From a virus (taxonomy: Duplodnaviria > Heunggongvirae > Uroviricota > Caudoviricetes): a stretch of 64,000 nucleotides of DNA. Location of the stretch: positions 111,843 through 175,842 of the IMG/VR virus record IMGVR_UViG_3300028048_000051, one strand, 5' to 3'. A model generated the notes under the pieces. The model saw only the letters and a list, made by a program, of their open reading frames with translations, was not told the origin of the DNA and did not search any database. Below, in pieces: positions 7,758-60,522 of the stretch; the stretch's first letter is position 1, and each line of letters begins with the position of its first letter. The position numbers and the translations under genes are program-made.

Positions 7758-8532
7758 TTTCATCGAAAAACTTCACCGGCTGTACGGCATAAAAGATCAG
7801 GTCCTCTATCGCTGGAAGATCGGACGAACCGCAGGTACGCGGTACTGTGTTCTTTCGAGCGTGAGGTTCGAGTCGTTGTCCTGTCGTGACGGCGATATTG
7901 CGTTCAGCAGCGCTGCAGGATATCTGCAGTATGCATACGGCAGACCTCAGATCATCTTTGCTGACAAGGACATCGTGTTGAGTCTGTCTGGTTCGCGGGC
8001 CGGATGCAATTTCCCGTCCCGTTTTCGGCGCGATGAGGAGGACGTCAGCAAGGCGCCCAACTGCGGACAGTACGATGTTGGTCCCAACAGCCCGTCATGG
8101 TTGATCAACAAGGTGTTGAGCATGGGTAATGATCCTTATTACAACACCTTCAAGATCGTGCAGCCCGAGTGGTATCGTTCCACCAGGATGCCGGAGAATC
8201 TGAAACCGCTGTTCAATGCGGAGCTGATTCATGCCATAGGCGGCAGCAAGGGAGATCATCTGGAGAAGCTGGAGAAACTTTTCCAGCAGAATCTCGACAG
8301 ATTCGGCACATACGAGGAGGAAGGTTATGTGATACCGTTCGATCTCGTGGTCGCCGGAGGGCGGGTCATGTGTGCGACCAAAGGACTTTACGGTCGACAT
8401 GGCGCATTGCACTGCATGGACGGCGCCCAGTTTCGCGCCGAGATGGCGAGACTGCATTGGCATCTCAAAACAGGGGACTCCTATGGAACAGAGGAAGCGG
8501 CTGACCTGGGGAAGCTTGCTGCCGACGAATAG
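7747..8532 (+). CDS. hypothetical protein
   Basis: Internal ATG (MEGDFIEK) of track ORF 7318..8532. Overlaps the previous gene end by 11 nt. Confidence 0.55.
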   Translation: MEGDFIEKLHRLYGIKDQVLYRWKIGRTAGTRYCVLSSVRFESLSCRDGDIAFSSAAGYLQYAYGRPQIIFADKDIVLSLSGSRAGCNFPSRFRRDEEDVSKAPNCGQYDVGPNSPSWLINKVLSMGNDPYYNTFKIVQPEWYRSTRMPENLKPLFNAELIHAIGGSKGDHLEKLEKLFQQNLDRFGTYEEEGYVIPFDLVVAGGRVMCATKGLYGRHGALHCMDGAQFRAEMARLHWHLKTGDSYGTEEAADLGKLAADE

Positions 8533-9100
8533 TCCGGTTATCCTGCTGTGTACCGCCACTACCGGGTTGAAACCGCCGGAGGGCAAGTGCATCGGGGTTT
8601 GGTATCGGATATTCGACGTCAGAAGTCAGATAAGCACACAAGATTGTCTGATCAGAGACCTTTCGGAAGAGGAGCTTGCTCAAGGATCCGAGTACCATAA
8701 AATTACTTCGGAGTTTGTCCGGGTTCATGCTTTGGACAAGGAAGCGTTCCGCAGACGTTGTGTTGAACTTTTCGGTTCCGCCACGCTGTTGACGTTCAAT
8801 CCGAAGTTCCAGTCGCAGTGGCTTCCGGAAGCCGTCGGGCATCTGTTTGATCTGCCGTTGCTATTGAAAGGAGCCGACATGCGCATATGTATGACGCCTG
8901 AGGATTCAGGCAGTCTGCGTAACGCGGAGGCATTTTTCATGACAATGACGTTTTCGCCGAAAATCCAGGAATCCATGCGTTGGCATGGTGTCACTGAGGC
9001 AGAGGCAGAATTCCCGGTCGAGTCGAAACTCGTCGGCCTTTTCCATCTTTTCCGGGCTTGGAAAAACTTGGAACTTTCGGTGCAGGAGCCGACAACTTGA
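8483..9100 (+). CDS. degenerate DnaQ-like (DEDD) 3'-5' exonuclease fold protein, probably catalytically inactive
   Basis: VILLCTATTGL resembles the Exo I motif DTETTGL with D changed to C and E to A. LLTFNPKFQSQWL is Exo II-like. Confidence 0.4.
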   Translation: MEQRKRLTWGSLLPTNSPVILLCTATTGLKPPEGKCIGVWYRIFDVRSQISTQDCLIRDLSEEELAQGSEYHKITSEFVRVHALDKEAFRRRCVELFGSATLLTFNPKFQSQWLPEAVGHLFDLPLLLKGADMRICMTPEDSGSLRNAEAFFMTMTFSPKIQESMRWHGVTEAEAEFPVESKLVGLFHLFRAWKNLELSVQEPTT

Positions 9101-9542
9101 TGGCGTCGAACATGGCATTTGCACGATTGACGACGCACACCTCGGGGATGCCTTCGTTGTTGATTCGTATTGCTTGCGCAACGACGGAGCGTGATTGCAG
9201 CACGACGTTTCCCGGTAGGGCATGGATGAGTATGAAGCCGTCCTTGCCTCCGGGATCAACGAGGGAGGCTCCCTGAGTGTCCATCAATCGCCAATGTGCG
9301 GAGTTGACGGAGAGCAGCACACCATCCCGAGAAGAGGCATCAGAATCTGATTCCTTTACAAAGGTGAGCGACTGCTGAGTAAGTTTACCAAATTTGTCAG
9401 GAGAATCGAATAATGGATACATCATAAGTGATGCACGTTGGATCTGTGCAGTTCCGGGATCGTCGGTAAGGATACTCTCGTATTTACCAACATCGATTCC
9501 CGGTACCGGGTCTGTATCAACCGTATAACAAAGAAGTGACAT
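8991..9542 (-). CDS. hypothetical protein (minus-strand ORF, divergent from the RT gene)
   Basis: 183-aa ORF with protein-like composition. Its start codon abuts the RT ATG (cat|ATG) and its 3' end overlaps 8483..9100 by about 110 nt. Alternative reading: this span is the RT-associated ncRNA. Confidence 0.3.
   Translation of the reverse strand: MSLLCYTVDTDPVPGIDVGKYESILTDDPGTAQIQRASLMMYPLFDSPDKFGKLTQQSLTFVKESDSDASSRDGVLLSVNSAHWRLMDTQGASLVDPGGKDGFILIHALPGNVVLQSRSVVAQAIRINNEGIPEVCVVNRANAMFDAIKLSAPAPKVPSFSKPGKDGKGRRVSTRPGILPLPQ
9101..9542 (+). ncRNA. candidate RT-associated non-coding RNA region (retron msr/msd-like or DRT-type ncRNA); speculative
   Basis: About 440 nt immediately upstream of a small retron-sized RT with no + strand ORF. 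Short palindromes (cccggtaccggg, ttgcgcaa, gggaggctccc); no long a1/a2 pair found by eye. Confidence 0.2.
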
Positions 9543-10499
9543 ATGTTTGATTTCGATATGCCTCCCATCTCATGGAGGGAAGCAAGGATTCCCAAAAAAT
9601 CCGGGGGATTCCGTAAACTGGAGATCCCCAACGACGAGTTGAAGGCGGTACAACGTACTATCTTACAATACTTGTACCGTAACAAACGGCTTCGTCCGTC
9701 TGCCATGGCCCACGGGTTTGTTCCGTTCAGGAATACCTGCACGGCCCTGACACACCACAATACCAAAGCACCGATTATTCTGTGCATGGATATCCATGAC
9801 TTCTTCGGGACCTTTCCCCTGGAACCGGTGCGGGGGCGAATGCTGTCTGCCGGGTTGCCGGCTACTGTGGTGGACAAAATCCTGTCTGTCTGTACCTACA
9901 AGGGACATTTCCCTCAGGGTGCTCCGACTTCGCCGTATCTTACCAACATCGGAATGTTGGACACCGACAGGGTGCTTGCCGCCTACGCGTCGCGCCATGG
10001 TTACATCTACACCAGGTATGCCGACGACATTACCTTCTCTCTGAAGTCGTCTGAAAGGCCGATCAAAGGACAGGCATTCATTTTCTACGGCGTGGAGAAG
10101 ATTCTCAGTGTGATGCTGGGTATTCATCTCAAGAAATCCAAAAGTCACATCATCGACATCAAAGGTCGTGCCGCACGTCGCGTCACCGGTGTCGTGGTGC
10201 GCAAAGACGGGCTTGGGTTCAATGCACCGCGGAAAATGCGTAAAAACACTCGCGCCGGTATTCATAACCTGGCGGAGAAGATCAGGAAAAATCGAGGCAG
10301 GGTTTTCGACGAGGACCATCTGAAGTGGCGTGAACTGCTGGGTTATGCCAGGTACATGGATACGCTGCGCAGTTACAGCCCGGAACCGCAGGCGGCCGGA
10401 GCCGATCCGACGATATCTGAGATCGACTGGCGCTATCTGTGTCGGAAATTCAATTACAAGAAAGGATTGGAAGATGGAAATGGAACAATTCCCGATTGA
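9543..10499 (+). CDS. reverse transcriptase, small retron/DRT-like (RT domain only, 318 aa)
   Basis: Contains motif 1/2 IPKKSGGFRKLEIP, motif A ILCMDIHDFF, motif B' QGAPTSPYLTN, motif C YTRYADDITF, motif D/E LGIHLKKSKS, and an RRVTGVVV 'VTG' motif typical of retron-type RTs. Confidence 0.85.
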   Translation: MFDFDMPPISWREARIPKKSGGFRKLEIPNDELKAVQRTILQYLYRNKRLRPSAMAHGFVPFRNTCTALTHHNTKAPIILCMDIHDFFGTFPLEPVRGRMLSAGLPATVVDKILSVCTYKGHFPQGAPTSPYLTNIGMLDTDRVLAAYASRHGYIYTRYADDITFSLKSSERPIKGQAFIFYGVEKILSVMLGIHLKKSKSHIIDIKGRAARRVTGVVVRKDGLGFNAPRKMRKNTRAGIHNLAEKIRKNRGRVFDEDHLKWRELLGYARYMDTLRSYSPEPQAAGADPTISEIDWRYLCRKFNYKKGLEDGNGTIPD

Positions 10500-11412
10500 T
10501 GACGTGATCCCGGTGGATCATGCGCATCTGATCGAGGACCAAAACCGCCTGATCCTGCAACATGGTGGGGTGGTTACTCGCGTATTCTTCAACAAGGTAT
10601 CGCGGATGCCGCTGGATCATTATCTGAAGCACGAACTGCCGAAGGCTGACGGGACGACGAAATGTCACCTGATCCGAGACTACAACCACAATAACATCAC
10701 CATGATTCTGGACGATCACGTGGCGGTGTATGATGTGGCTTCGATCGAGGAAGTGTCTTTGAAAGATTTGGCCGACAACCTGATCACGACACAGAATCTG
10801 GAGCTGTTTCCAGATATTCCGTATCAGATCATCGGGTACATCAAACAACAGGACTGCCTGCTCGTCACGGTGTATATCCCAGCCAGTTGGTTCAATTACA
10901 GAGCTGCTGACGTGGATTCGGTGCGGGTGATGCATCCGCCGCTGTGGTTCAGAATCAAGCTCAACAATGCCGGAGCCCTGCTGTCTTCCGCCATGGCGGT
11001 GGTGCGAACCACAGAACCGCGATGGAAAAATACGCAGCTGTACAAATGGCTGTTGCCTAACGTATTTCCGAACAATGAAATATGTTTGGGATGTTCCCAA
11101 CTGTCCGGGGGCATCGATAATCCCACGAGCGGCCAGGCAATCATGTCGGTGTATCATCAGGTATTCGACAGTTTGTGGAACTACCATTTGTTCAACAGCG
11201 ATGATGCCGACAAGGCCGTCATGGCTGCATTCAATGCATTACCGAAAAACAGGGTACCGTTCGAGGGTCTGACGGACAAGGCACACAGTGCCACCGCATC
11301 CATAAAACGCATGCTGTCCGTGCTGCACCAGCCGGAAGGTTGGCGACAGATAAAATGGCCCGAGAATCAGTTTTCCGCCGAGGACTTTGTCCGAGGTAAG
11401 GGAGGTAGGTGA
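10474..11412 (+). CDS. hypothetical protein immediately downstream of and overlapping the RT gene
   Basis: Internal ATG (MEMEQF) of ORF 10330..11412. Contains VFPNNEICLGCSQL and MHPPLW segments with weak resemblance to E2/UEV-like HPN loops. Confidence 0.5.
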   Translation: MEMEQFPIDDVIPVDHAHLIEDQNRLILQHGGVVTRVFFNKVSRMPLDHYLKHELPKADGTTKCHLIRDYNHNNITMILDDHVAVYDVASIEEVSLKDLADNLITTQNLELFPDIPYQIIGYIKQQDCLLVTVYIPASWFNYRAADVDSVRVMHPPLWFRIKLNNAGALLSSAMAVVRTTEPRWKNTQLYKWLLPNVFPNNEICLGCSQLSGGIDNPTSGQAIMSVYHQVFDSLWNYHLFNSDDADKAVMAAFNALPKNRVPFEGLTDKAHSATASIKRMLSVLHQPEGWRQIKWPENQFSAEDFVRGKGGR

Positions 11413-11669
11413 TGAGACCGAGTATTGCCGGCCGCCACTCCAAATTGAGGTGTGTAGAAGCGCCAGTCATGGTTACACGCGCCGGTAAAATGCTTTTTGA
11501 GGATGTTACGGTGTATTATCCGGAACTGAAAGCACTGGCGCTGGCTTTCAACAAATCCAAGGAGACCAGACGTATGAACATCTTGGCTGAACACGTCAAG
11601 AACGAACGACATATGGCTGGGGAAATCAACACGGAGGACCTGGATATAACCGTCCTCGACAACAAGTAA
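11409..11669 (+). CDS. hypothetical small protein
   Basis: ATGATG start overlapping the upstream stop codon (GTGATG). Confidence 0.45.
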   Translation: MMRPSIAGRHSKLRCVEAPVMVTRAGKMLFEDVTVYYPELKALALAFNKSKETRRMNILAEHVKNERHMAGEINTEDLDITVLDNK

Positions 11670-11679
11670 AGGTATTCAA

Positions 11680-12747
11680 ATGAAAAACATGATTGTGGGC
11701 AGCGATGGCTGTCTGATTCGGACTCAGTCCAAGCTGATTTCCGGATGGGAGAAGTGCGACGACCTGAAAGTACTCAAGGCGTATGCCAAACCCCTGCCCG
11801 ATGGCTTTCAGGATGGGCTGAAGTGGATCGGAGCCAAAATTCCGGTCGAACTGATGCGCCGCATGTGGGCAACAATGAAAGAATTTCCTCATCGGGAAAT
11901 CGGATTCATGTTGTACATCAACAGCGAGAGTGGGGAGTGGTATGTAAAGTGCCCGCCTCAGCGCGGTTCCGGCGGCAGCGTCTTCATGGAAGACAAGGGA
12001 GAAGGCGTTCCTGACGGATTCGCCTGGATCGGCACTGTGCATACGCATCCCAACATGGGCGCGTTTTGGAGTGGCACCGATCAGAATGACCAGAAGGCCA
12101 AGTACGGGCTGCACTTCGTTTTCGGACTTGACGACGGTGTGCCCAAGCGGTGGAAGGTGACGATCTTCACACCGCGGGCGTCGTACGATCAGGAGATTCT
12201 TGACGTAGTTGAAGCCCTTCCGGATGACCAGAATCTTGGCGAGCCCGTCAAGGAATGGCTGGAGGTGTTGAATAAGCCGCTGCCCGAATCCGCCGAACGT
12301 CAGCGCTGCAATGTCGCGTGGTCTACTCCGATGTCGCCCTCGATGGCGTCGGCATTGCTCACCAAGCCGACGCTGTCGATACCTTCCGGGTCTTACTCCG
12401 ATCCTTCTCGCGAACGCAGAGCGCTCATGACCGATGTATTCAGAGAGGGATGGGAAGAGGTGCTCAAGGCACATATCGATTCTCTGTTCGGGCTTCTCGA
12501 TATGTGCGAAGATTCTTTCCCCGAACTTATGATATCCGACCTGCTCGTTGAGCAAATGTATAATCACGGGTGGCAGGATGCGGTGATGCAGTCATTGATG
12601 GAGATCCAGTCCGATGATGGATGGAGTTCTGCAGAATTGCGCAGAGCCTACGACATGCAACTTGCCGAGGGTCAGGATAAGTATCCGCCGAATGACGCTG
12701 ATGATGACCTGTGGGATGTGGGCTGCAGAAAGGCTTCCAAATGCTGA
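11680..12747 (+). CDS. JAB/MPN (JAMM) metallopeptidase domain protein with C-terminal extension
   Basis: E...GTVHTHPNMGAFWSGTDQND is the JAMM motif HxHx7Sx2D. Confidence 0.75.
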   Translation: MKNMIVGSDGCLIRTQSKLISGWEKCDDLKVLKAYAKPLPDGFQDGLKWIGAKIPVELMRRMWATMKEFPHREIGFMLYINSESGEWYVKCPPQRGSGGSVFMEDKGEGVPDGFAWIGTVHTHPNMGAFWSGTDQNDQKAKYGLHFVFGLDDGVPKRWKVTIFTPRASYDQEILDVVEALPDDQNLGEPVKEWLEVLNKPLPESAERQRCNVAWSTPMSPSMASALLTKPTLSIPSGSYSDPSRERRALMTDVFREGWEEVLKAHIDSLFGLLDMCEDSFPELMISDLLVEQMYNHGWQDAVMQSLMEIQSDDGWSSAELRRAYDMQLAEGQDKYPPNDADDDLWDVGCRKASKC

Positions 12748-13640
12748 ACATATATGTGATCGGCTGTGGAGGAATCGGAGGATATCTGCTGGACTTGCTG
12801 CCTCAGGCACTGGCCAGTGCCAGTCTCGATGCAATACAGGCCAACGGCACCGACATTACCCCCTTGCTGGAGAAAGCGGGTAATTGCTATATCCAATGTG
12901 TTGCCGACAGGCTGGTATTGATCGATGGCGACTCGTTCAATGCCCGCAATGCGCTGCGCCAGGGAGCAGGAGCCGGAGGCAAGCTGGTGACGCGCCTGCG
13001 GAGGATCAAGGATTCCATGCTGATGCAGACCTATCTGCAGGGCATGCATCTTTCAGGGGTCGATGGATACATCACCCCCGACAATATGGAGGATCTCATC
13101 CCTCGCATGGCTCCCGAAAACCCGGATAACATGCCGGACAACGCGTTTGCCGACAACTCTGGTGGGTTTGTGCTGCCAGGCCGCAAACACTATGCTTCCA
13201 CGGTAGTGTTCCTGTGCGTGGACAACGTCAAGACTCGGTACGAGGTTTCCAAATATATGGAGACATTCGATAATTGTCTAGTCATCAATGGCGGAAACGA
13301 GCGTACCACCGGGCATGTAACCGTGTATGAGAGGGTTGGCGGCATACCGCTTGATCCCAACATCATGGACATCTATCCCAACATCACGCCGGATGCCGAC
13401 AAGCGTCCGGACGAGTTGGCGTGTACTGCGGTAGCCCCCAAGCATGACCAGATCGCGGTCACCAATGCGATCGTAGCCAACGTGATGGCGATGATTTTCA
13501 TCCGATGGCTCGCCAACGGCACCATCAACCGGCAGATAACCCGCAAGGGATCTGTTGTGGTGGAACGCAAGAATGAAGTCGTCATCGACATAGAAACTAT
13601 GACGATGACTCCGTTGTATCACCCGAGAAACGATGGGTGA
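12741..13640 (+). CDS. ThiF/MoeB/E1-like ubiquitin-activating-enzyme family protein
   Basis: MLNIYVIGCGGIGGYLLDLL is the Rossmann GxGxxG motif. LIDGDSFNARNALRQ resembles the E1 motif LxDxDxVexSNLnRQ. ATG overlaps the upstream stop (ATGCTGA). Confidence 0.8.
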   Translation: MLNIYVIGCGGIGGYLLDLLPQALASASLDAIQANGTDITPLLEKAGNCYIQCVADRLVLIDGDSFNARNALRQGAGAGGKLVTRLRRIKDSMLMQTYLQGMHLSGVDGYITPDNMEDLIPRMAPENPDNMPDNAFADNSGGFVLPGRKHYASTVVFLCVDNVKTRYEVSKYMETFDNCLVINGGNERTTGHVTVYERVGGIPLDPNIMDIYPNITPDADKRPDELACTAVAPKHDQIAVTNAIVANVMAMIFIRWLANGTINRQITRKGSVVVERKNEVVIDIETMTMTPLYHPRNDG

Positions 13641-13679
13641 TTATAGTAAACCAAGGCCAACAAAGAAAGGAAAAGGAAA

Positions 13680-14057
13680 ATGGCTCAGGTTAACTTCCAT
13701 GTCAGGTCCAACCGCATCTCGCAGATGGAGGTGGACGGAAACAAGACGGTTGCGGAGATCCGTGAGATGCTCGCGCAGGCCGGTTTCGATGTGCGGGAAT
13801 CGCACGTCACGATCATCCGTAAGGACAATACGGCCTTGATCGGACACACCGATGGCTATGTCCCGGGGAATACCGACATCGTGCGTTTCGACACCTCGAC
13901 CGTGAATCTGCCGCTGGCGGAACGGGCCTATCGTGAGGCGGGTAATGCCTGCTGCGAAGCCTGCCGGCAGCCCGATGCTTCTGTTCGCGTCGGCGGTCAT
14001 GTGCTGAGTGTCGAGGCCGGCGAGGACGGCAAGACCGTGGTCATCAGGTTCCGGTAA
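13680..14057 (+). CDS. hypothetical protein (possible beta-grasp-like)
   Basis: ORF with a purine-rich ribosome-binding site; no motif recognised. Confidence 0.5.
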   Translation: MAQVNFHVRSNRISQMEVDGNKTVAEIREMLAQAGFDVRESHVTIIRKDNTALIGHTDGYVPGNTDIVRFDTSTVNLPLAERAYREAGNACCEACRQPDASVRVGGHVLSVEAGEDGKTVVIRFR

Positions 14058-14138
14058 TCCCGGAACCAGATGGGAGTATTCAACAAACAATCAACAACCA
14101 AATGTAAAAACACAATTTTTCAAGAAAGGTATTTCAAA

Positions 14139-14684
14139 ATGAAGAACATCACCATTATCGCCATCGAGAACAACGTCACCCGTACTTTCGTCGCCGCCGA
14201 GGATGAAACTCTCCGCTCCGTGTTGGAGCATGAGGATGTCCTCAATTTCTTCGACGCCGAGGCAGAGACCATCCGCAGCCATTTCGACACCTACAACGGC
14301 ACCGACATGTCGAACGAGGCGGTCGCCAGTGCGCTGCTCAACGCCGTCGTCAACGATGGCGACGTCATCGAGATCGATCTTGCCGGCAGCGAAGAAGCGG
14401 GAGAGGACAACGACGCTCAGGGCGGAACTTGTGTGGTCGCCACCTCCGGCGGCATGCAGGAAACCGAAGTTACGATCACCGAAGGCATGACCGTGCGTGA
14501 TGCGGTCTACAGCGAGGCCGTGCGCACCCGCTCCGGCATGACCGACGCCCAGCTTTCGGCCAGCAACTTCACCATCAACGGTGAAACCATTGCGGCAGCC
14601 AACCTCGGCAGTCGGCAGGTCCGTAACGGAGATCGCATCGTGCTTTCCCCGCATGCCGCCTGCACCAAGGGCTGCCGTCGGTAA
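14139..14684 (+). CDS. tandem ThiS/MoaD-like (beta-grasp, ubiquitin-like) domain protein with internal di-glycine motifs
   Basis: Domain 1 ends ...NDGDVIEIDLAGSEEAGEDNDAQGG; the linker reads TCVVATSGG; domain 2 reads EVTITEGMTVRDAVY...FTINGETIAA...NGDRIVLSP, resembling ThiS INGE...DGDxIxI. Confidence 0.55.
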   Translation: MKNITIIAIENNVTRTFVAAEDETLRSVLEHEDVLNFFDAEAETIRSHFDTYNGTDMSNEAVASALLNAVVNDGDVIEIDLAGSEEAGEDNDAQGGTCVVATSGGMQETEVTITEGMTVRDAVYSEAVRTRSGMTDAQLSASNFTINGETIAAANLGSRQVRNGDRIVLSPHAACTKGCRR

Positions 14685-14692
14685 TCCGCACT

Positions 14693-15208
14693 ATGCGGAC
14701 ATGGCAGATACACATTCCAGTACGTCCCAAGTGCGTACAGTCCACCGCGTTCAGACGCGGTCAGGGCGCGTACGCACCTAAGGACGTAAAAGAGTGGAAA
14801 GCCAAGATACGCCCGTTCATAATGGCCTCCTGCGGGGGGCCTCCCACCAAACTTCCGGTCGAGATCGTAGCACTCAGATACATATTCAAGTACCCGCAGA
14901 GCACGCCCCTGAACGTCAGAGAGTACATCCGTGCCGGAGGACTTGTTCCTTACCTAAAGGCCGCGGATATTCATGACAACCTCAACAAGGGCACGATAGA
15001 TGTCTGCAAAGGTATCGTATTCGAGGACGACAACCTCGTATGGCGGATCAAAGGCACGGTGGAGAAGGTGTACGGAGAACAGGACGGAATGTATCTGGAA
15101 TTCCGCGAATGTCCAGATGTCATGCTGATAGACGGACGGAAAGGAAAAGATCTTGATGAGTCTGCTGACGAAATTCAAGACGACTCCGGAACTTTTGGCT
15201 GGTCGTAA
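14693..15208 (+). CDS. rusA: RusA-like Holliday junction resolvase
   Basis: WQIHIPVRP... N-terminus, and ADIHDNLNKGTIDVCKGIVFEDDNLV matching the RusA DxDNxxKxxxDal...DD motif. Confidence 0.55.
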   Translation: MRTWQIHIPVRPKCVQSTAFRRGQGAYAPKDVKEWKAKIRPFIMASCGGPPTKLPVEIVALRYIFKYPQSTPLNVREYIRAGGLVPYLKAADIHDNLNKGTIDVCKGIVFEDDNLVWRIKGTVEKVYGEQDGMYLEFRECPDVMLIDGRKGKDLDESADEIQDDSGTFGWS

Positions 15209-15551
15209 GGATCTCCATCTGATTGTGGATCTGCTGTGGCAGAGAGGACCGTTCACCCGTACCCAGGTGTATCGGAAAATCTCCGATATGCTTGGATCGG
15301 GTGAGCTGGTCCACATTTCCGATCTTAAACTGTCCCAGATACGCTGGCTTGTCGATGCACTGCAGTTTGAATTGCAGAAAGTCGGAGTACTGCGTTGCAA
15401 GGACTGCAAGTACAAGTTCGTAGATCCGGTTTCCGGATTGTTTCGTTGCTCCAAATGGGGCAGTTTTTTCGAGAAGGGCGCGGTTGACATTGTCCCGTGC
15501 GAGGATTTCAGGAGAATAAAAAATGATTTTTCCATCAACCTTCAAACTTGA
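15153..15551 (+). CDS. hypothetical protein with Cys cluster (CKDCKY...C...C)
   Basis: ORF with ribosome-binding site; overlaps rusA 3' end by 56 nt. Confidence 0.4.
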   Translation: MMSLLTKFKTTPELLAGRKDLHLIVDLLWQRGPFTRTQVYRKISDMLGSGELVHISDLKLSQIRWLVDALQFELQKVGVLRCKDCKYKFVDPVSGLFRCSKWGSFFEKGAVDIVPCEDFRRIKNDFSINLQT

Positions 15552-19301: not shown

Positions 19302-19457
19302 ATGGATAAGAATTCGAGTGAACACAAGGTCTGCATCTACTGTGACTCCGATGCACTTCCCGGTACCGAGCCGCCGGTTTGCGAAGTGCACAAGAACACA
19401 AAGCAGGCGTCCGATACCCCGGTGAACCTGAAGGATCTGGAAAGTCGTGAGGGGTAA
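19302..19457 (+). CDS. small Cys-containing protein (51 aa; CIYC...C..H)
   Basis: Not in the track (under 60 aa). GGGAGAAAGAAA ribosome-binding site before the ATG. Confidence 0.3.
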   Translation: MDKNSSEHKVCIYCDSDALPGTEPPVCEVHKNTKQASDTPVNLKDLESREG

Positions 19458-19571
19458 ATGGGTGATATCATCAATTTCATCGTCGGCTCCGCGGTGTTCT
19501 GCATCGTGTTGTCGGCGGTGACTCCGTTTTTCATGGCATTGAAAATAATCATAAAGGAGTTGTCGAGATGA
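19458..19571 (+). CDS. small hydrophobic membrane peptide (37 aa)
   Basis: MGDIINFIVGSAVFCIVLSAVTPFFMAL...; its stop overlaps the next ATG (ATGA). Confidence 0.3.
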   Translation: MGDIINFIVGSAVFCIVLSAVTPFFMALKIIIKELSR

Positions 19572-19861
19572 CTGAGTCGCAAAAACTTGCCGCATCTTTC
19601 GGTTTTACCACCAAGGGGTATCCGGCGCCTCCACAGGGAGTGCACAGTGTTCAGGATGCTTACTACAAAGCCGAGGATAAGCGTCCGGCAATCACAGAGG
19701 TGGATTCGAGTTGGCAACCTGCGCCTCCGCCTGCCGTAACCGGCAGTGCGAGTGAGGATCGCCAGGCGATCTTGGATCGGCTTTACGCCGAACGCGATCG
19801 GCTGTTGAAGTCTCTCGATGAAGTCAATGCTGAAATCTATCGGTTGCTCGGTCAGCAGTAA
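19568..19861 (+). CDS. hypothetical protein
   Basis: ORF with GGAG ribosome-binding site. Confidence 0.5.
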   Translation: MTESQKLAASFGFTTKGYPAPPQGVHSVQDAYYKAEDKRPAITEVDSSWQPAPPPAVTGSASEDRQAILDRLYAERDRLLKSLDEVNAEIYRLLGQQ

Positions 19862-19882
19862 TTTTATCCTTGGGTATAAAAA

Positions 19883-20116
19883 ATGAGCGGCGAGCAGTTG
19901 AGTAAACTGGCCGCGGCTGTATTGGCCGATGCCACCGGAGATAAACCGCAGGGCGTTCCGTTGTCTGGTGGATTGCGGGCGTGGTTTGAGTTCATCGACT
20001 ACCGCGAAAAGCCGAGGATGGCCGTCGCTGTGAAGAATGCGCATGGGGAGACGTTGTATCGGTATATTTCGAAGTCGTTCTACCGCATGTGCGCGTTGAA
20101 GAAAGTGCCGGCATAA
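19883..20116 (+). CDS. hypothetical protein
   Basis: ORF with ribosome-binding site. Confidence 0.5.
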   Translation: MSGEQLSKLAAAVLADATGDKPQGVPLSGGLRAWFEFIDYREKPRMAVAVKNAHGETLYRYISKSFYRMCALKKVPA

Positions 20117-26226: not shown

Positions 26227-27387
26227 ATGTACAAAATTGCAGAGAATGTCCTGTCATGGTGCAATGATCCGGAGTCCGGAGCGCAGTTTCAGGCGATGAA
26301 TATCTCTCGCCATCCGTGTCTCATTGGCAATGTGTGTCTCATGCCGGACACGCATGAAGGTTACGGCATGCCGATAGGCGGCGTGGCGGCATTTGAAAAT
26401 GCCGTCTGTCCCAACATGGTCGGCGTGGATATCGGCTGTGGGATGCTCGCGGTGAGGACATCCATCATCGAAAAACCCGGTCGTGAGGAGCTGTGTCGGG
26501 TCGTACAGAAGATACGAGCGTCCGTTCCTGTCGGGACTTCCCATCAGAGTACACCGCAGCCCGACGAATTGTTCGACGAGCCGATTTGGAGCAGTAACAG
26601 TGTTTGCGGGTTTGAGTGCGAAAATGCCAAGCGACAACTTGGTACGCTCGGCGGTGGCAATCACTTCATCGAGCTGCAGTGGGGTGATGATGGGCATATG
26701 TGGCTCATGATCCATTCCGGCTCACGTAATCTCGGTAAAAAAGTTGCCGATTATTACAACAACATCGCGGTAGAACTCTGCACCAGATGGCGGCAGATCG
26801 AGTGCGTCAGGGATCAACTGGCTTTCTTGCCTCGCGGCACCACGGAATATACTGATTACATGCGCGAGATGAACGCCTGCATACGTTTCGGTCAGGCCAA
26901 TCGTCGACATATTGCCGATGCCGTGATCCGCGCGATCAGTGAGGTATTCAGCAGCCAATGTCCTGATTTTGCCGATCCCATCAACATCAAGCACAACTAC
27001 GCCACTCTGGAACATCACTACGGCAAGGATGTCATGGTACACCGCAAGGGCGCTACGCTTGCCAGGAAAGGCGTCATCGGTATCATTCCCGGGTCACAGG
27101 GCAGCTGCTCGTATATCGTGGAGGGTCTGGGTAACGAGGCGTCGCTTTGTTCCTGTTCACACGGAGCCGGCCGCAGAATGTCGCGTTCGCGCGCACGCTC
27201 AGTGTTGAGTCTTGAGGACGAGGTTGCCAAGATGGATGCTTGCGGCATAGTGCATGGCATCAGCTGTGCCGATGACCTGGACGAGGCGCCGTCCGCGTAC
27301 AAGGACATAGACACTGTCATGCGGGAGCAGGCTGATCTGGTGAAGCCGTTGGTGCAGCTTAGCCCGTTGGCGGTCATCAAAGGATAG
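26227..27387 (+). CDS. rtcB: RtcB-family RNA ligase
   Basis: MPDTHEGYGMPIGGV, GGGNHFIE, HRKGAT and SCSHGAGR are RtcB active-site motifs. CAAGGAGGAAAACCA ribosome-binding site. Confidence 0.9.
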   Translation: MYKIAENVLSWCNDPESGAQFQAMNISRHPCLIGNVCLMPDTHEGYGMPIGGVAAFENAVCPNMVGVDIGCGMLAVRTSIIEKPGREELCRVVQKIRASVPVGTSHQSTPQPDELFDEPIWSSNSVCGFECENAKRQLGTLGGGNHFIELQWGDDGHMWLMIHSGSRNLGKKVADYYNNIAVELCTRWRQIECVRDQLAFLPRGTTEYTDYMREMNACIRFGQANRRHIADAVIRAISEVFSSQCPDFADPINIKHNYATLEHHYGKDVMVHRKGATLARKGVIGIIPGSQGSCSYIVEGLGNEASLCSCSHGAGRRMSRSRARSVLSLEDEVAKMDACGIVHGISCADDLDEAPSAYKDIDTVMREQADLVKPLVQLSPLAVIKG

Positions 27388-60295: not shown

Positions 60296-60375
60296 GGGGC
60301 CGGAAGAGGTTCGACGGGGCGCAAAGCCAAAGCGCAAAGCTCCGGACAGGGATTCGATTCCCCTCGGCTCCACCA
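60296..60375 (+). ncRNA. tmRNA tRNA-like-domain mimic (5' and 3' tmRNA termini fused, about 80 nt, genomically encoded CCA, G3·U70 acceptor pair)
   Basis: GGGGCCGGAAGAGGUUCGACGGGG... resembles the tmRNA 5' end GGGGCUGAUUCUGGAUUCGACGGG. ...GGACAGGGAUUCGAUUCCCCUCGGCUCCACCA resembles the tmRNA 3' end GGACGCGGGUUCAACUCCCGCCAGCUCCACCA. No mRNA-like domain. Confidence 0.45.
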
Positions 60376-60388
60376 ATTCTTTCATGGG

Positions 60389-60461
60389 GGCGCGGTAGCT
60401 CAAAGGTAGAGCTCTCGACGCTTAATCGAGCGGGTGAAGGTTCGAGTCCTTCCTGCGCCCC
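60389..60461 (+). tRNA. tRNA (anticodon-loop positions give CUU = Lys, but with unusual G at position 33)
   Basis: Acceptor GGCGCGG/CUGCGCC; U8A9; D-stem GCUC/GAGC; anticodon stem CUCGA/UCGAG with loop CGCUUAA; T-arm GAAGG-UUCGAGU-CCUUC. Confidence 0.65.
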
Positions 60462-60522
60462 CGTCATTTTATAAATCAATATGGACGTCATCCACGGTGG
60501 GTGGCGTCCTTTTTATTTCCCA

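Follow-up and report, generated by a model that had tools for sequence, protein, structure and literature searches.

A small reverse transcriptase (RT) gene in the genome of a large phage raises a question: does an RT of the retron kind, when carried by a virus, have a template RNA of its own? Retron-type RTs are defined and understood through a template RNA that is encoded in cis, and bacteria are known to use them for defense against phages. The gene in question lies in a stretch of 64,000 nucleotides (nt) from a member of the Caudoviricetes (IMG/VR record IMGVR_UViG_3300028048_000051, positions 111,843 to 175,842); we refer to this whole stretch as the window. A first-pass annotation had described a small retron/DRT-like RT (DRT, defense-associated RT) preceded by about 440 nt that lack a same-strand open reading frame (ORF), and it had offered two explanations for this space: a non-coding RNA (ncRNA) that serves as the template, or a divergent pair of genes that share their start region. 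Our analysis favors the second. We consider it probable, on balance, that the RT and the gene facing it form a head-to-head pair of independent protein genes, that no retron template RNA (msr-msd) is encoded upstream, and that the RT works without a dedicated template in cis. The protein is a stand-alone, retron-like RT without the canonical retron architecture: of the features that define a retron, those open to testing (an msr-msd in cis, membership in a retron type, and an effector) were all lacking.

The RT gene (9543..10499, + strand) encodes, from an ATG start, a protein of 318 amino acids (aa) of the retron lineage, with a minimal fingers-palm-thumb organization that is predicted to be catalytically intact. 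Every motif quoted in the first-pass annotation was present in the translation: IPKKSGGFRKL at residues 16-26, MDIHDFF at 81-87, QGAPTSPYLTN at 125-135, YADD at 159-162, LKKSKS at 198-203, and RRVTGVVV at 212-219. The only Pfam domain detected was RVT_1 (7.6e-20); the earlier statement that maturase and endonuclease domains are missing thus held up in Pfam, and neither Pfam nor a comparison with PDB profiles revealed a fused effector domain. Because the match to the retron Ec67 RT in the latter comparison covers residues 8-293, there is no space for an additional domain. Across 40 RTs of the clade to which this protein belongs, D83, Y159-A160-D161-D162, K200, and G216 are invariant. The ratio of nonsynonymous to synonymous substitution rates (dN/dS) for the RT is 0.04-0.05, indicating strong purifying selection, and the AlphaFold2 (AF2) model has a predicted local distance difference test score (pLDDT) of 93.5. 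Judging from the sequence and the model, the enzyme is almost certainly active.

By sequence profile and predicted fold, the RT is of the retron lineage. PADLOC models of retron RTs matched it at 1e-40 to 2e-48, and among NCBIfam models the retron families ranked first (St85, 2e-45), ahead of group II (3e-21) and Drt2 (1e-12), with all of these NCBIfam matches lying under their curated cutoffs (155 bits vs. 235 for retron_St85_RT). A profile built from the 40 clade members and compared with PDB sequences scored highest with the retron RTs Ec67 (151 bits), Ec86 (130), and Ec83 (127); group II and group II-like RTs were the second-best class at 84-88 bits (GsI-IIC, 88), and DRT2 (54), G2L4 (39), and AbiK (28) trailed. 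Similarly, the first 12 Foldseek ranks in the PDB were all retron RTs, aligned over the full length including the thumb with template modeling scores of 0.65-0.71; behind them came DRT2 (rank 25), G2L4 (26-27), and the RT of a diversity-generating retroelement (DGR; rank 41), as well as group II and DRT9 enzymes. The retron RTs that provide the best profile and fold matches (Eco2/Ec67, Eco1/Ec86, Ec83, Eco7/Ec78, and type XIII) also resemble the phage protein in size (~320 aa).

The resemblance has limits. On every retron-type model, members of the clade scored 123-164 bits with no type favored, whereas bona fide type XIII RTs reached 530-540 bits and other cellular relatives 250-285; the clade therefore cannot be placed in any of the 13 defined types. 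Outside the clade, its closest cellular relatives were typed as RT_XIII-like. A VTG in RT motif 7 is a retron signature (PMC8632793), and the window protein has it (RRVTGVVV). Among the 40 clade RTs, about half carry (V/I)TG and about half (I/V/A)LG, leaving only the glycine invariant; the shift from VTG to (I/V)LG in this half is a further departure from retron RTs. The phage RT differs from known retrons in its setting as well, as it has no msr-msd, no non-coding DNA beside the gene, and no obligate effector, and its place is among the near-core, syntenic genes of phages that are large and apparently lytic, not in the cargo of a defense island or prophage.

Other RT classes were considered and set aside. 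Of the two affinities named in the first-pass annotation, that to retrons stands, as the matches to Ec67 and the leading fold ranks attest, and that to DRT2 does not: the Drt2 model NF041746 scored 48 bits against a cutoff of 390 and matched residues 123-207 only, in keeping with DRT2's 54 bits and fold rank 25 noted above. The group II RT/maturases, including G2L4 and GsI-IIC, share the RT fold and the QGxxxSP and YADD motifs with the phage protein. They differ from it in that it lacks a maturase/X-domain signature at cutoff (TIGR04416, 76 bits vs. 300) and scores lower with group II than with retron RTs; an Rfam search for group II intron RNA was negative both in 8000-12000 and across the whole window. 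Assignment to the DGR RTs was likewise rejected, given the low fold rank of that class and its absence from the PDB sequence matches of the clade profile; a search confined to 8800-9800 found no long direct repeat of the template/variable repeat (TR/VR) type. The RTs of Zeta crAss-like phages described in the literature are DGR RTs and fall outside this clade.

What, then, occupies the space upstream of the RT? On the + strand, the preceding gene ends at 9100, and the following 442 nt (9101..9542) contain no ORF longer than 72 aa, which confirms the space noted in the first-pass annotation. This stretch has no detectable ncRNA gene and is the antisense of the coding sequence of a minus-strand gene, here called orfX (8991..9542, - strand). 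The only upstream ORF that had been listed, on the opposite strand, is thus a real gene. Of the 183 aa that it encodes, residues 1-150 form a beta-rich domain, which is followed by a tail that is basic and disordered. An exhaustive search with hidden Markov models (HMMs) collected a family of 76 representatives, nearly all of them stand-alone proteins of 150-208 aa. Even where identity falls to 24-31%, the orfX proteins of the clade keep their length, can still be aligned, and share nine invariant residues as well as the basic disordered C-terminal tail. In its own frame, orfX has a dN/dS of 0.11-0.13, with dS values (0.64-1.5) that are near saturation, like those of neighboring genes. No domain match was found in Pfam, NCBIfam, PADLOC, or PHROG, and the AF2 model, although confident, had no structural match; matches to PKD/BACON Ig-like repeat proteins were marginal and were set aside as uninformative. 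The modeled beta-rich domain is unlike the four-helix Avd protein of DGRs.

The start codons of orfX and the RT abut, with 0 nt between them in the window (CAT/ATG at 9540-9545), and orfX is found head to head with the RT in every clade locus with enough sequence, at a start-codon gap of 0-34 nt. As a conserved protein gene, orfX occurs both in company with the RT and in its absence, and the divergent pair was the correct alternative: the ATGs stand back to back, and both belong to conserved protein genes. The arrangement recalls DRT2, a defense RT of the UG/Abi group that builds a neo gene from an upstream ncRNA, in that a small stand-alone RT is preceded by an ORF on the strand opposite the RNA. 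Unlike the product of that system, orfX is an ordinary genomic gene with its own start and stop that occurs without the RT, and no ncRNA structure was found.

The proposed ncRNA template in 9101..9542 fared poorly by every measure. Rfam yielded nothing in 8000-12000, even with E-values of up to 10 allowed, and its matches across the whole window at the gathering threshold included nothing relevant. The 442 nt gave folding z-scores of -3.1 to -3.8 on the + strand and -2.8 to -3.2 on the minus strand; because ordinary coding windows of the same genome (n = 20; mean -2.2, standard deviation (SD) 1.6) reach a minimum of -5.0, folding energy was rejected as evidence for an ncRNA. A three-way comparison of the window with two relatives (L002 and L003), all near synonymous saturation, showed no conservation island over 9101..9542: nucleotide identity ranged from 0.52 to 0.77 against a background of 0.63. 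In a codon-aware alignment of 15 diverse clade loci in the + strand orientation, covering orfX and the junction, the alifold consensus energy was 0.0 kcal/mol in every 150-column window. Examination for a1/a2 repeats and an msd stem returned only imperfect inverted repeats of 9-13 nt at chance level, none of them conserved. Between up1 (the + strand gene that ends at 9100) and the RusA gene, there is no non-coding space of the size of an RNA gene. Two further candidate sources of a template in this region were dismissed: the small ORFs p86, p125, and p204 evolve as proteins (dN/dS 0.09-0.27), and a supposed gap at 15208-15523 is protein-coding. Purifying selection on orfX marks the upstream 442 nt as protein-coding, and they are not supported as an ncRNA gene. 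As far as computation shows, the region combines the lack of a structured RNA with a minus-strand ORF that is predicted to be translated, a combination that speaks against the retron arrangement suggested in the first-pass annotation.

The promoter motif that had been noticed just before the RT start codon is not supported either. This promoter-like element (GTATAACAAAG; 9523..9533, + strand) is the antisense of the orfX codons for Leu-Cys-Tyr-Thr, and Cys-Tyr-Thr is conserved at the N-terminus of orfX in our alignments. Its frequency is at chance level: allowing up to two mismatches, there are 12 matches in the window vs. 9.5 +/- 2.9 expected. Scans for sigma-70 promoters and terminators gave background levels. 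Synonymous conservation is mildly raised at RT codons ~20-60 and at the N-terminal codons of orfX (0.5 vs. 0.33), with few sites contributing.

A subset of relatives offers a hint about when orfX might be expressed. In a TAG-recoded subclade (L009, L016/L017, L019, L020/L091, and L200), the in-frame stop codons of each orfX number 7-12 and are TAG without exception, TAA and TGA being absent, and every long + strand gene within 6-13 kb, the RT included, contains no in-frame TAG at all. Nine of the 21 TAG columns in orfX are common to different lineages. Recoded stops occur mainly in late or lytic phage genes (Borges et al., bioRxiv 10.1101/2021.08.26.457843), and the translation of TAG as Gln has been confirmed (Peters et al., PMC9523058). 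The TAG-packed orfX amid TAG-free, early-type genes thus resembles the TAG-recoded late genes of gut phages, and it differs from them in being a lone recoded gene on the opposite strand of an unrecoded block, abutting an RT. Because the recoded relatives load orfX alone with TAG, and in view of the published late-gene pattern, we infer that orfX is translated late.

Natural variants of the locus separate the RT from its neighbors, which include, downstream, a cassette of E2-like, JAB, and ThiF/E1 genes. One relative from the same phage group (L203) has recognizable up5, up3, and up1 genes (28-34% identity), JAB (37%), and ThiF (46%); there, orfX is followed by a 110-nt intergenic region and the E2-like gene, with JAB and ThiF retained, and neither tblastn nor the clade HMM found an RT in any frame. 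Loss of the RT from this phage is favored, because its ThiF is 47-50% identical to those of RT-bearing members, within the range (38-84%) that the latter show among themselves. Two other loci (L198/L199) keep up2, a gene at the up1 position, orfX, a 224-nt intergenic region, a p204-like ubiquitin-like (Ubl) protein, and RusA; the RT, E2-like, p86, JAB, ThiF, and p125 genes are gone en bloc. Distant phages (L196 and L197) have JAB and ThiF and no RT, and in three lineages (L005, L006, and L008) a gene for an NAD-dependent DNA ligase (649-660 aa), whose start overlaps the RT stop, stands between the RT and the E2-like gene. From these variants, we conclude that orfX and the Ubl cassette are independent of the RT and that the RT unit is the ORF alone; the comparison with L203 indicates that the RT gene brings no non-coding DNA with it. 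There is no obligate effector neighbor, since each of the two neighbors, orfX on one side and the E2/JAB/E1 cassette on the other, is found in phages that lack the RT.

How might such a gene pair operate? The RT exactly fills the interval from the orfX start to that of the E2/JAB/E1 operon, leaving 0-34 nt non-coding. It would be translated from a long, early-type + strand transcript that reads through the antisense of orfX; the overlap between the RT stop and the start of the next gene suggests expression as part of an operon. The promoter and 5' untranslated region of orfX may be embedded in the 5' coding region of the RT, and orfX would be translated late. As its template, the RT would take either an RNA provided in trans or some ordinary transcript of the phage or its host, and not a dedicated structured RNA in cis. 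The enzyme could serve as an accessory polymerase of phage replication and repair or belong to a counter-defense gene set; the presence of the phage's own family A DNA polymerase, together with a replication and nucleotide-metabolism context, was counted in favor of this explanation. What the RT copies, and why, is the least certain step, for which a trans or non-dedicated template in an accessory role is most likely.

Several points weigh against this explanation. To our knowledge, all retron-lineage RTs studied so far rely on an ncRNA in cis, which makes its absence here unusual. The absence of a template rests on negative computational evidence, from a search that covered 64 kb of a ~180-kb genome and 6-8 kb of flanking sequence in relatives, and the alifold test would miss a structure that is lineage-specific or out of register with the aligned codons. 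That orfX and the RT stand head to head without exception (in at least 23 loci) might yet mean a functional link despite the two RT-less variants. The rise in synonymous conservation (0.5 vs. 0.33, on few sites) is only mild for a putative embedded orfX promoter, and the terms "early" for the RT and "late" for orfX derive from gene context and TAG usage.

Four other explanations were weighed against the independent gene pair. A canonical retron, in which a + strand msr-msd in 9101..9542 lies antisense to orfX and the RT makes multicopy single-stranded DNA from it, is highly improbable. It would conform to the norm for retron-lineage RTs, whose RNA is encoded immediately 5' on the same transcript (PMC8632793), and read-through of the operon would necessarily produce the + strand leader as RNA; moreover, the 442 nt fold ~3 SD better than shuffles, and several imperfect inverted repeats of 10-12 nt join 9240-9390 to 9578-9619. 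Yet similar z-scores occur on the minus strand and in coding windows, the consensus structure energy of 15 clade members is zero, Rfam is empty, the synonymous sites of orfX are nearly saturated without a conservation island, and phages without the RT still have orfX together with its antisense leader, both unchanged. The last observation implies that the leader sequence is not maintained for the RT. These RT-less phages bear equally on the notion of a two-gene module, in which orfX would be, for example, a late regulator, inhibitor, or partner of the enzyme, with reciprocal transcriptional control between the head-to-head genes. For such a module speak the 0-34-nt spacing of the starts in all RT-bearing loci examined (at least 23, with RT identities of 34-95%), the confinement of both families to this phage group, the survival of the layout through insertions elsewhere (the ligase after the RT, an intron inside it), and the TAG lock on orfX alone. 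Nonetheless, L203 and L198/L199 retain an intact orfX overlapping up1 and have no RT, and, with the whole region syntenic, adjacency carries little information; we regard the module as quite unlikely.

By analogy with the CD-NTases that Cap2 and Cap3 regulate in type II CBASS, the RT might instead be coupled to the E2/JAB/E1/ubiquitin-like cassette, which would be the effector or regulator of the RT. The RT stop overlaps the next start by 26 nt in the window, suggesting one operon; the RT and the entire cassette are jointly missing from L198/L199; and a ThiF scan returns the same RT-bearing contigs. This coupling is nevertheless very unlikely, as E2-like, JAB, and ThiF persist without the RT in L203, L196 and L197 have JAB and ThiF without it, the ligase separates the RT from the E2-like gene in three lineages, and no link between retron RTs and E1/E2/JAB was found in the literature. 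The RT could also be a domesticated DNA repair or replication polymerase, akin to G2L4, acting on DNA or RNA-DNA without a dedicated template RNA. The company it keeps (RusA, the NAD-ligase that immediately follows the RT in three lineages, NrdD, ThyX, dUTPase, and DNA polymerase A), the strong purifying selection, and the failure to find a cis ncRNA would all suit such an enzyme. It is distinctly improbable even so: G2L4 lies far under the retron RTs (39 vs. 151 bits; fold ranks 26-27), the RT is dispensable in L203, and we know of no retron-lineage RT in such a role.

A bolder explanation can also be framed. The whole retron-lineage clade of large rumen or gut phages might work without an msr-msd, copying, for example, the antisense leader across orfX or RNAs in trans, such that early cDNA would time late genes or counter host defense. 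We deem this unlikely; if true, the clade would constitute a mechanistically new class of retron-derived RTs. At present, what is new is a diverse, constrained clade of retron-type RTs without room for an RNA, and any new mechanism is conjectural. In contrast to known retrons, this is a diverse RT lineage (~88 clusters) under strong purifying selection and inherited vertically in a family of 150-196 kb phages, with no room for a template RNA and no obligate partner gene. If the RT is active, its template must be found another way, which would widen the scope of retron-derived RTs; the protein is also a compact enzyme for study and tool-building. For its part, orfX represents a new, structurally unmatched protein family, and its placement on the opposite strand together with its exclusive TAG load makes it a clean natural test case for the proposed timing of late expression by stop-codon recoding.

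The RT clade is sharply bounded. A protein search returned ~88 clusters (P0001-P0088) at 35-95% identity and 198-701 bits, and the next match had at most 145 bits. Clade contigs, many of them 150-196 kb long, derive mostly from the rumen: they come from sheep, cattle, and buffalo rumen, from other gut metagenomes, and from IMG/VR, whose viral contigs among the relatives span 164-192 kb. A degenerate DNA pattern specific to the clade retrieved exactly the 10 IMG/VR contigs of the clade; applied to one genome per species from 185,579 species, it gave eight chance matches, none encoding the RT. Scanning metagenomes with the RT profile returned mostly generic retron RTs and two further clade loci, and the orfX profile was too divergent to serve in pattern scans. 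No close relative of the window was found among GenBank phages. In two clade loci (L020, 2400-3908, and also L091), an RNA resembling a group I intron (43 bits, E 3.5e-9, under the Rfam gathering score) splits the RT gene after ~codon 23 and is followed by a TnpB/OrfB_IS605 ORF of 361 aa; in L020, orfX lies 1.7 kb upstream of the remaining RT gene. TnpB/IS605 OrfB genes at 121-1218 and 12676-12945 flank the syntenic block in L009, suggesting that mobile elements are active in these phage genomes.

On the other side of orfX, up1 (8483..9100, + strand) is a conserved gene of 205 aa (dN/dS 0.17-0.24) whose 3' end overlaps that of orfX convergently by 110 nt. The overlap measures 68-150 nt in relatives, RT-less loci included, and its window counterpart (8991-9100) encodes the basic disordered tail of orfX. 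A second minus-strand ORF (19337-20044) looks spurious and is unrelated to orfX.

Downstream of the RT, 10474-14684 (+ strand) looks like a complete ubiquitin-like conjugation cassette. It opens with the E2-like gene (10474..11412, + strand; Prok-E2_D 0.001, stronger in relatives), whose start overlaps the RT stop, and continues with an 86-aa protein, the JAB peptidase (11680-12747, + strand; Prok-JAB 3e-6, PRTRC_A weak), ThiF/E1 (12759-13640, + strand; ThiF 3e-8, PRTRC_ThiF weak), a 125-aa protein that looks like a beta-grasp fold, and a protein with a ThiS-like C-terminus. The resemblance of the cassette to PRTRC is weak (E 0.01 to 1e-5, far under cutoffs). Purifying selection acts on all of its genes, and they are conserved throughout the phage group. 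A conservation island at 11626-11665 (+ strand), at the 3' end of the 86-aa ORF, is among the strongest of the block (0.92 three-way identity); it holds a GAGGAC...GTCCTC hairpin just before the JAB start and may be a translational-coupling or regulatory element.

The window as a whole represents that part of a large phage genome (~180 kb) which serves replication and nucleotide metabolism. It encodes NrdD and RtcB (both with PHROG matches), ThyX, dUTPase, a radical-SAM activase, an RNA ligase, and a family A DNA polymerase. The phage origin claimed in the first-pass annotation is supported by these PHROG matches, the viral relatives in IMG/VR, the TAG recoding seen among relatives, and a group I intron that carries a GIY-YIG endonuclease. 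The intron (110-1078, + strand; Rfam 52 bits) contains the GIY-YIG homing endonuclease ORF at 203-1078, and its host gene extends past the start of the window. Near the other end, 60296-60462 (+ strand) holds a tRNA-Lys(CTT) and, before it, a tRNA-like element, which Rfam scores as a tmRNA fragment (52 bits) and which received no ARAGORN call. Together with RtcB (26227-27387) and the RNA ligase, these two elements suggest a kit for tRNA repair or replacement.

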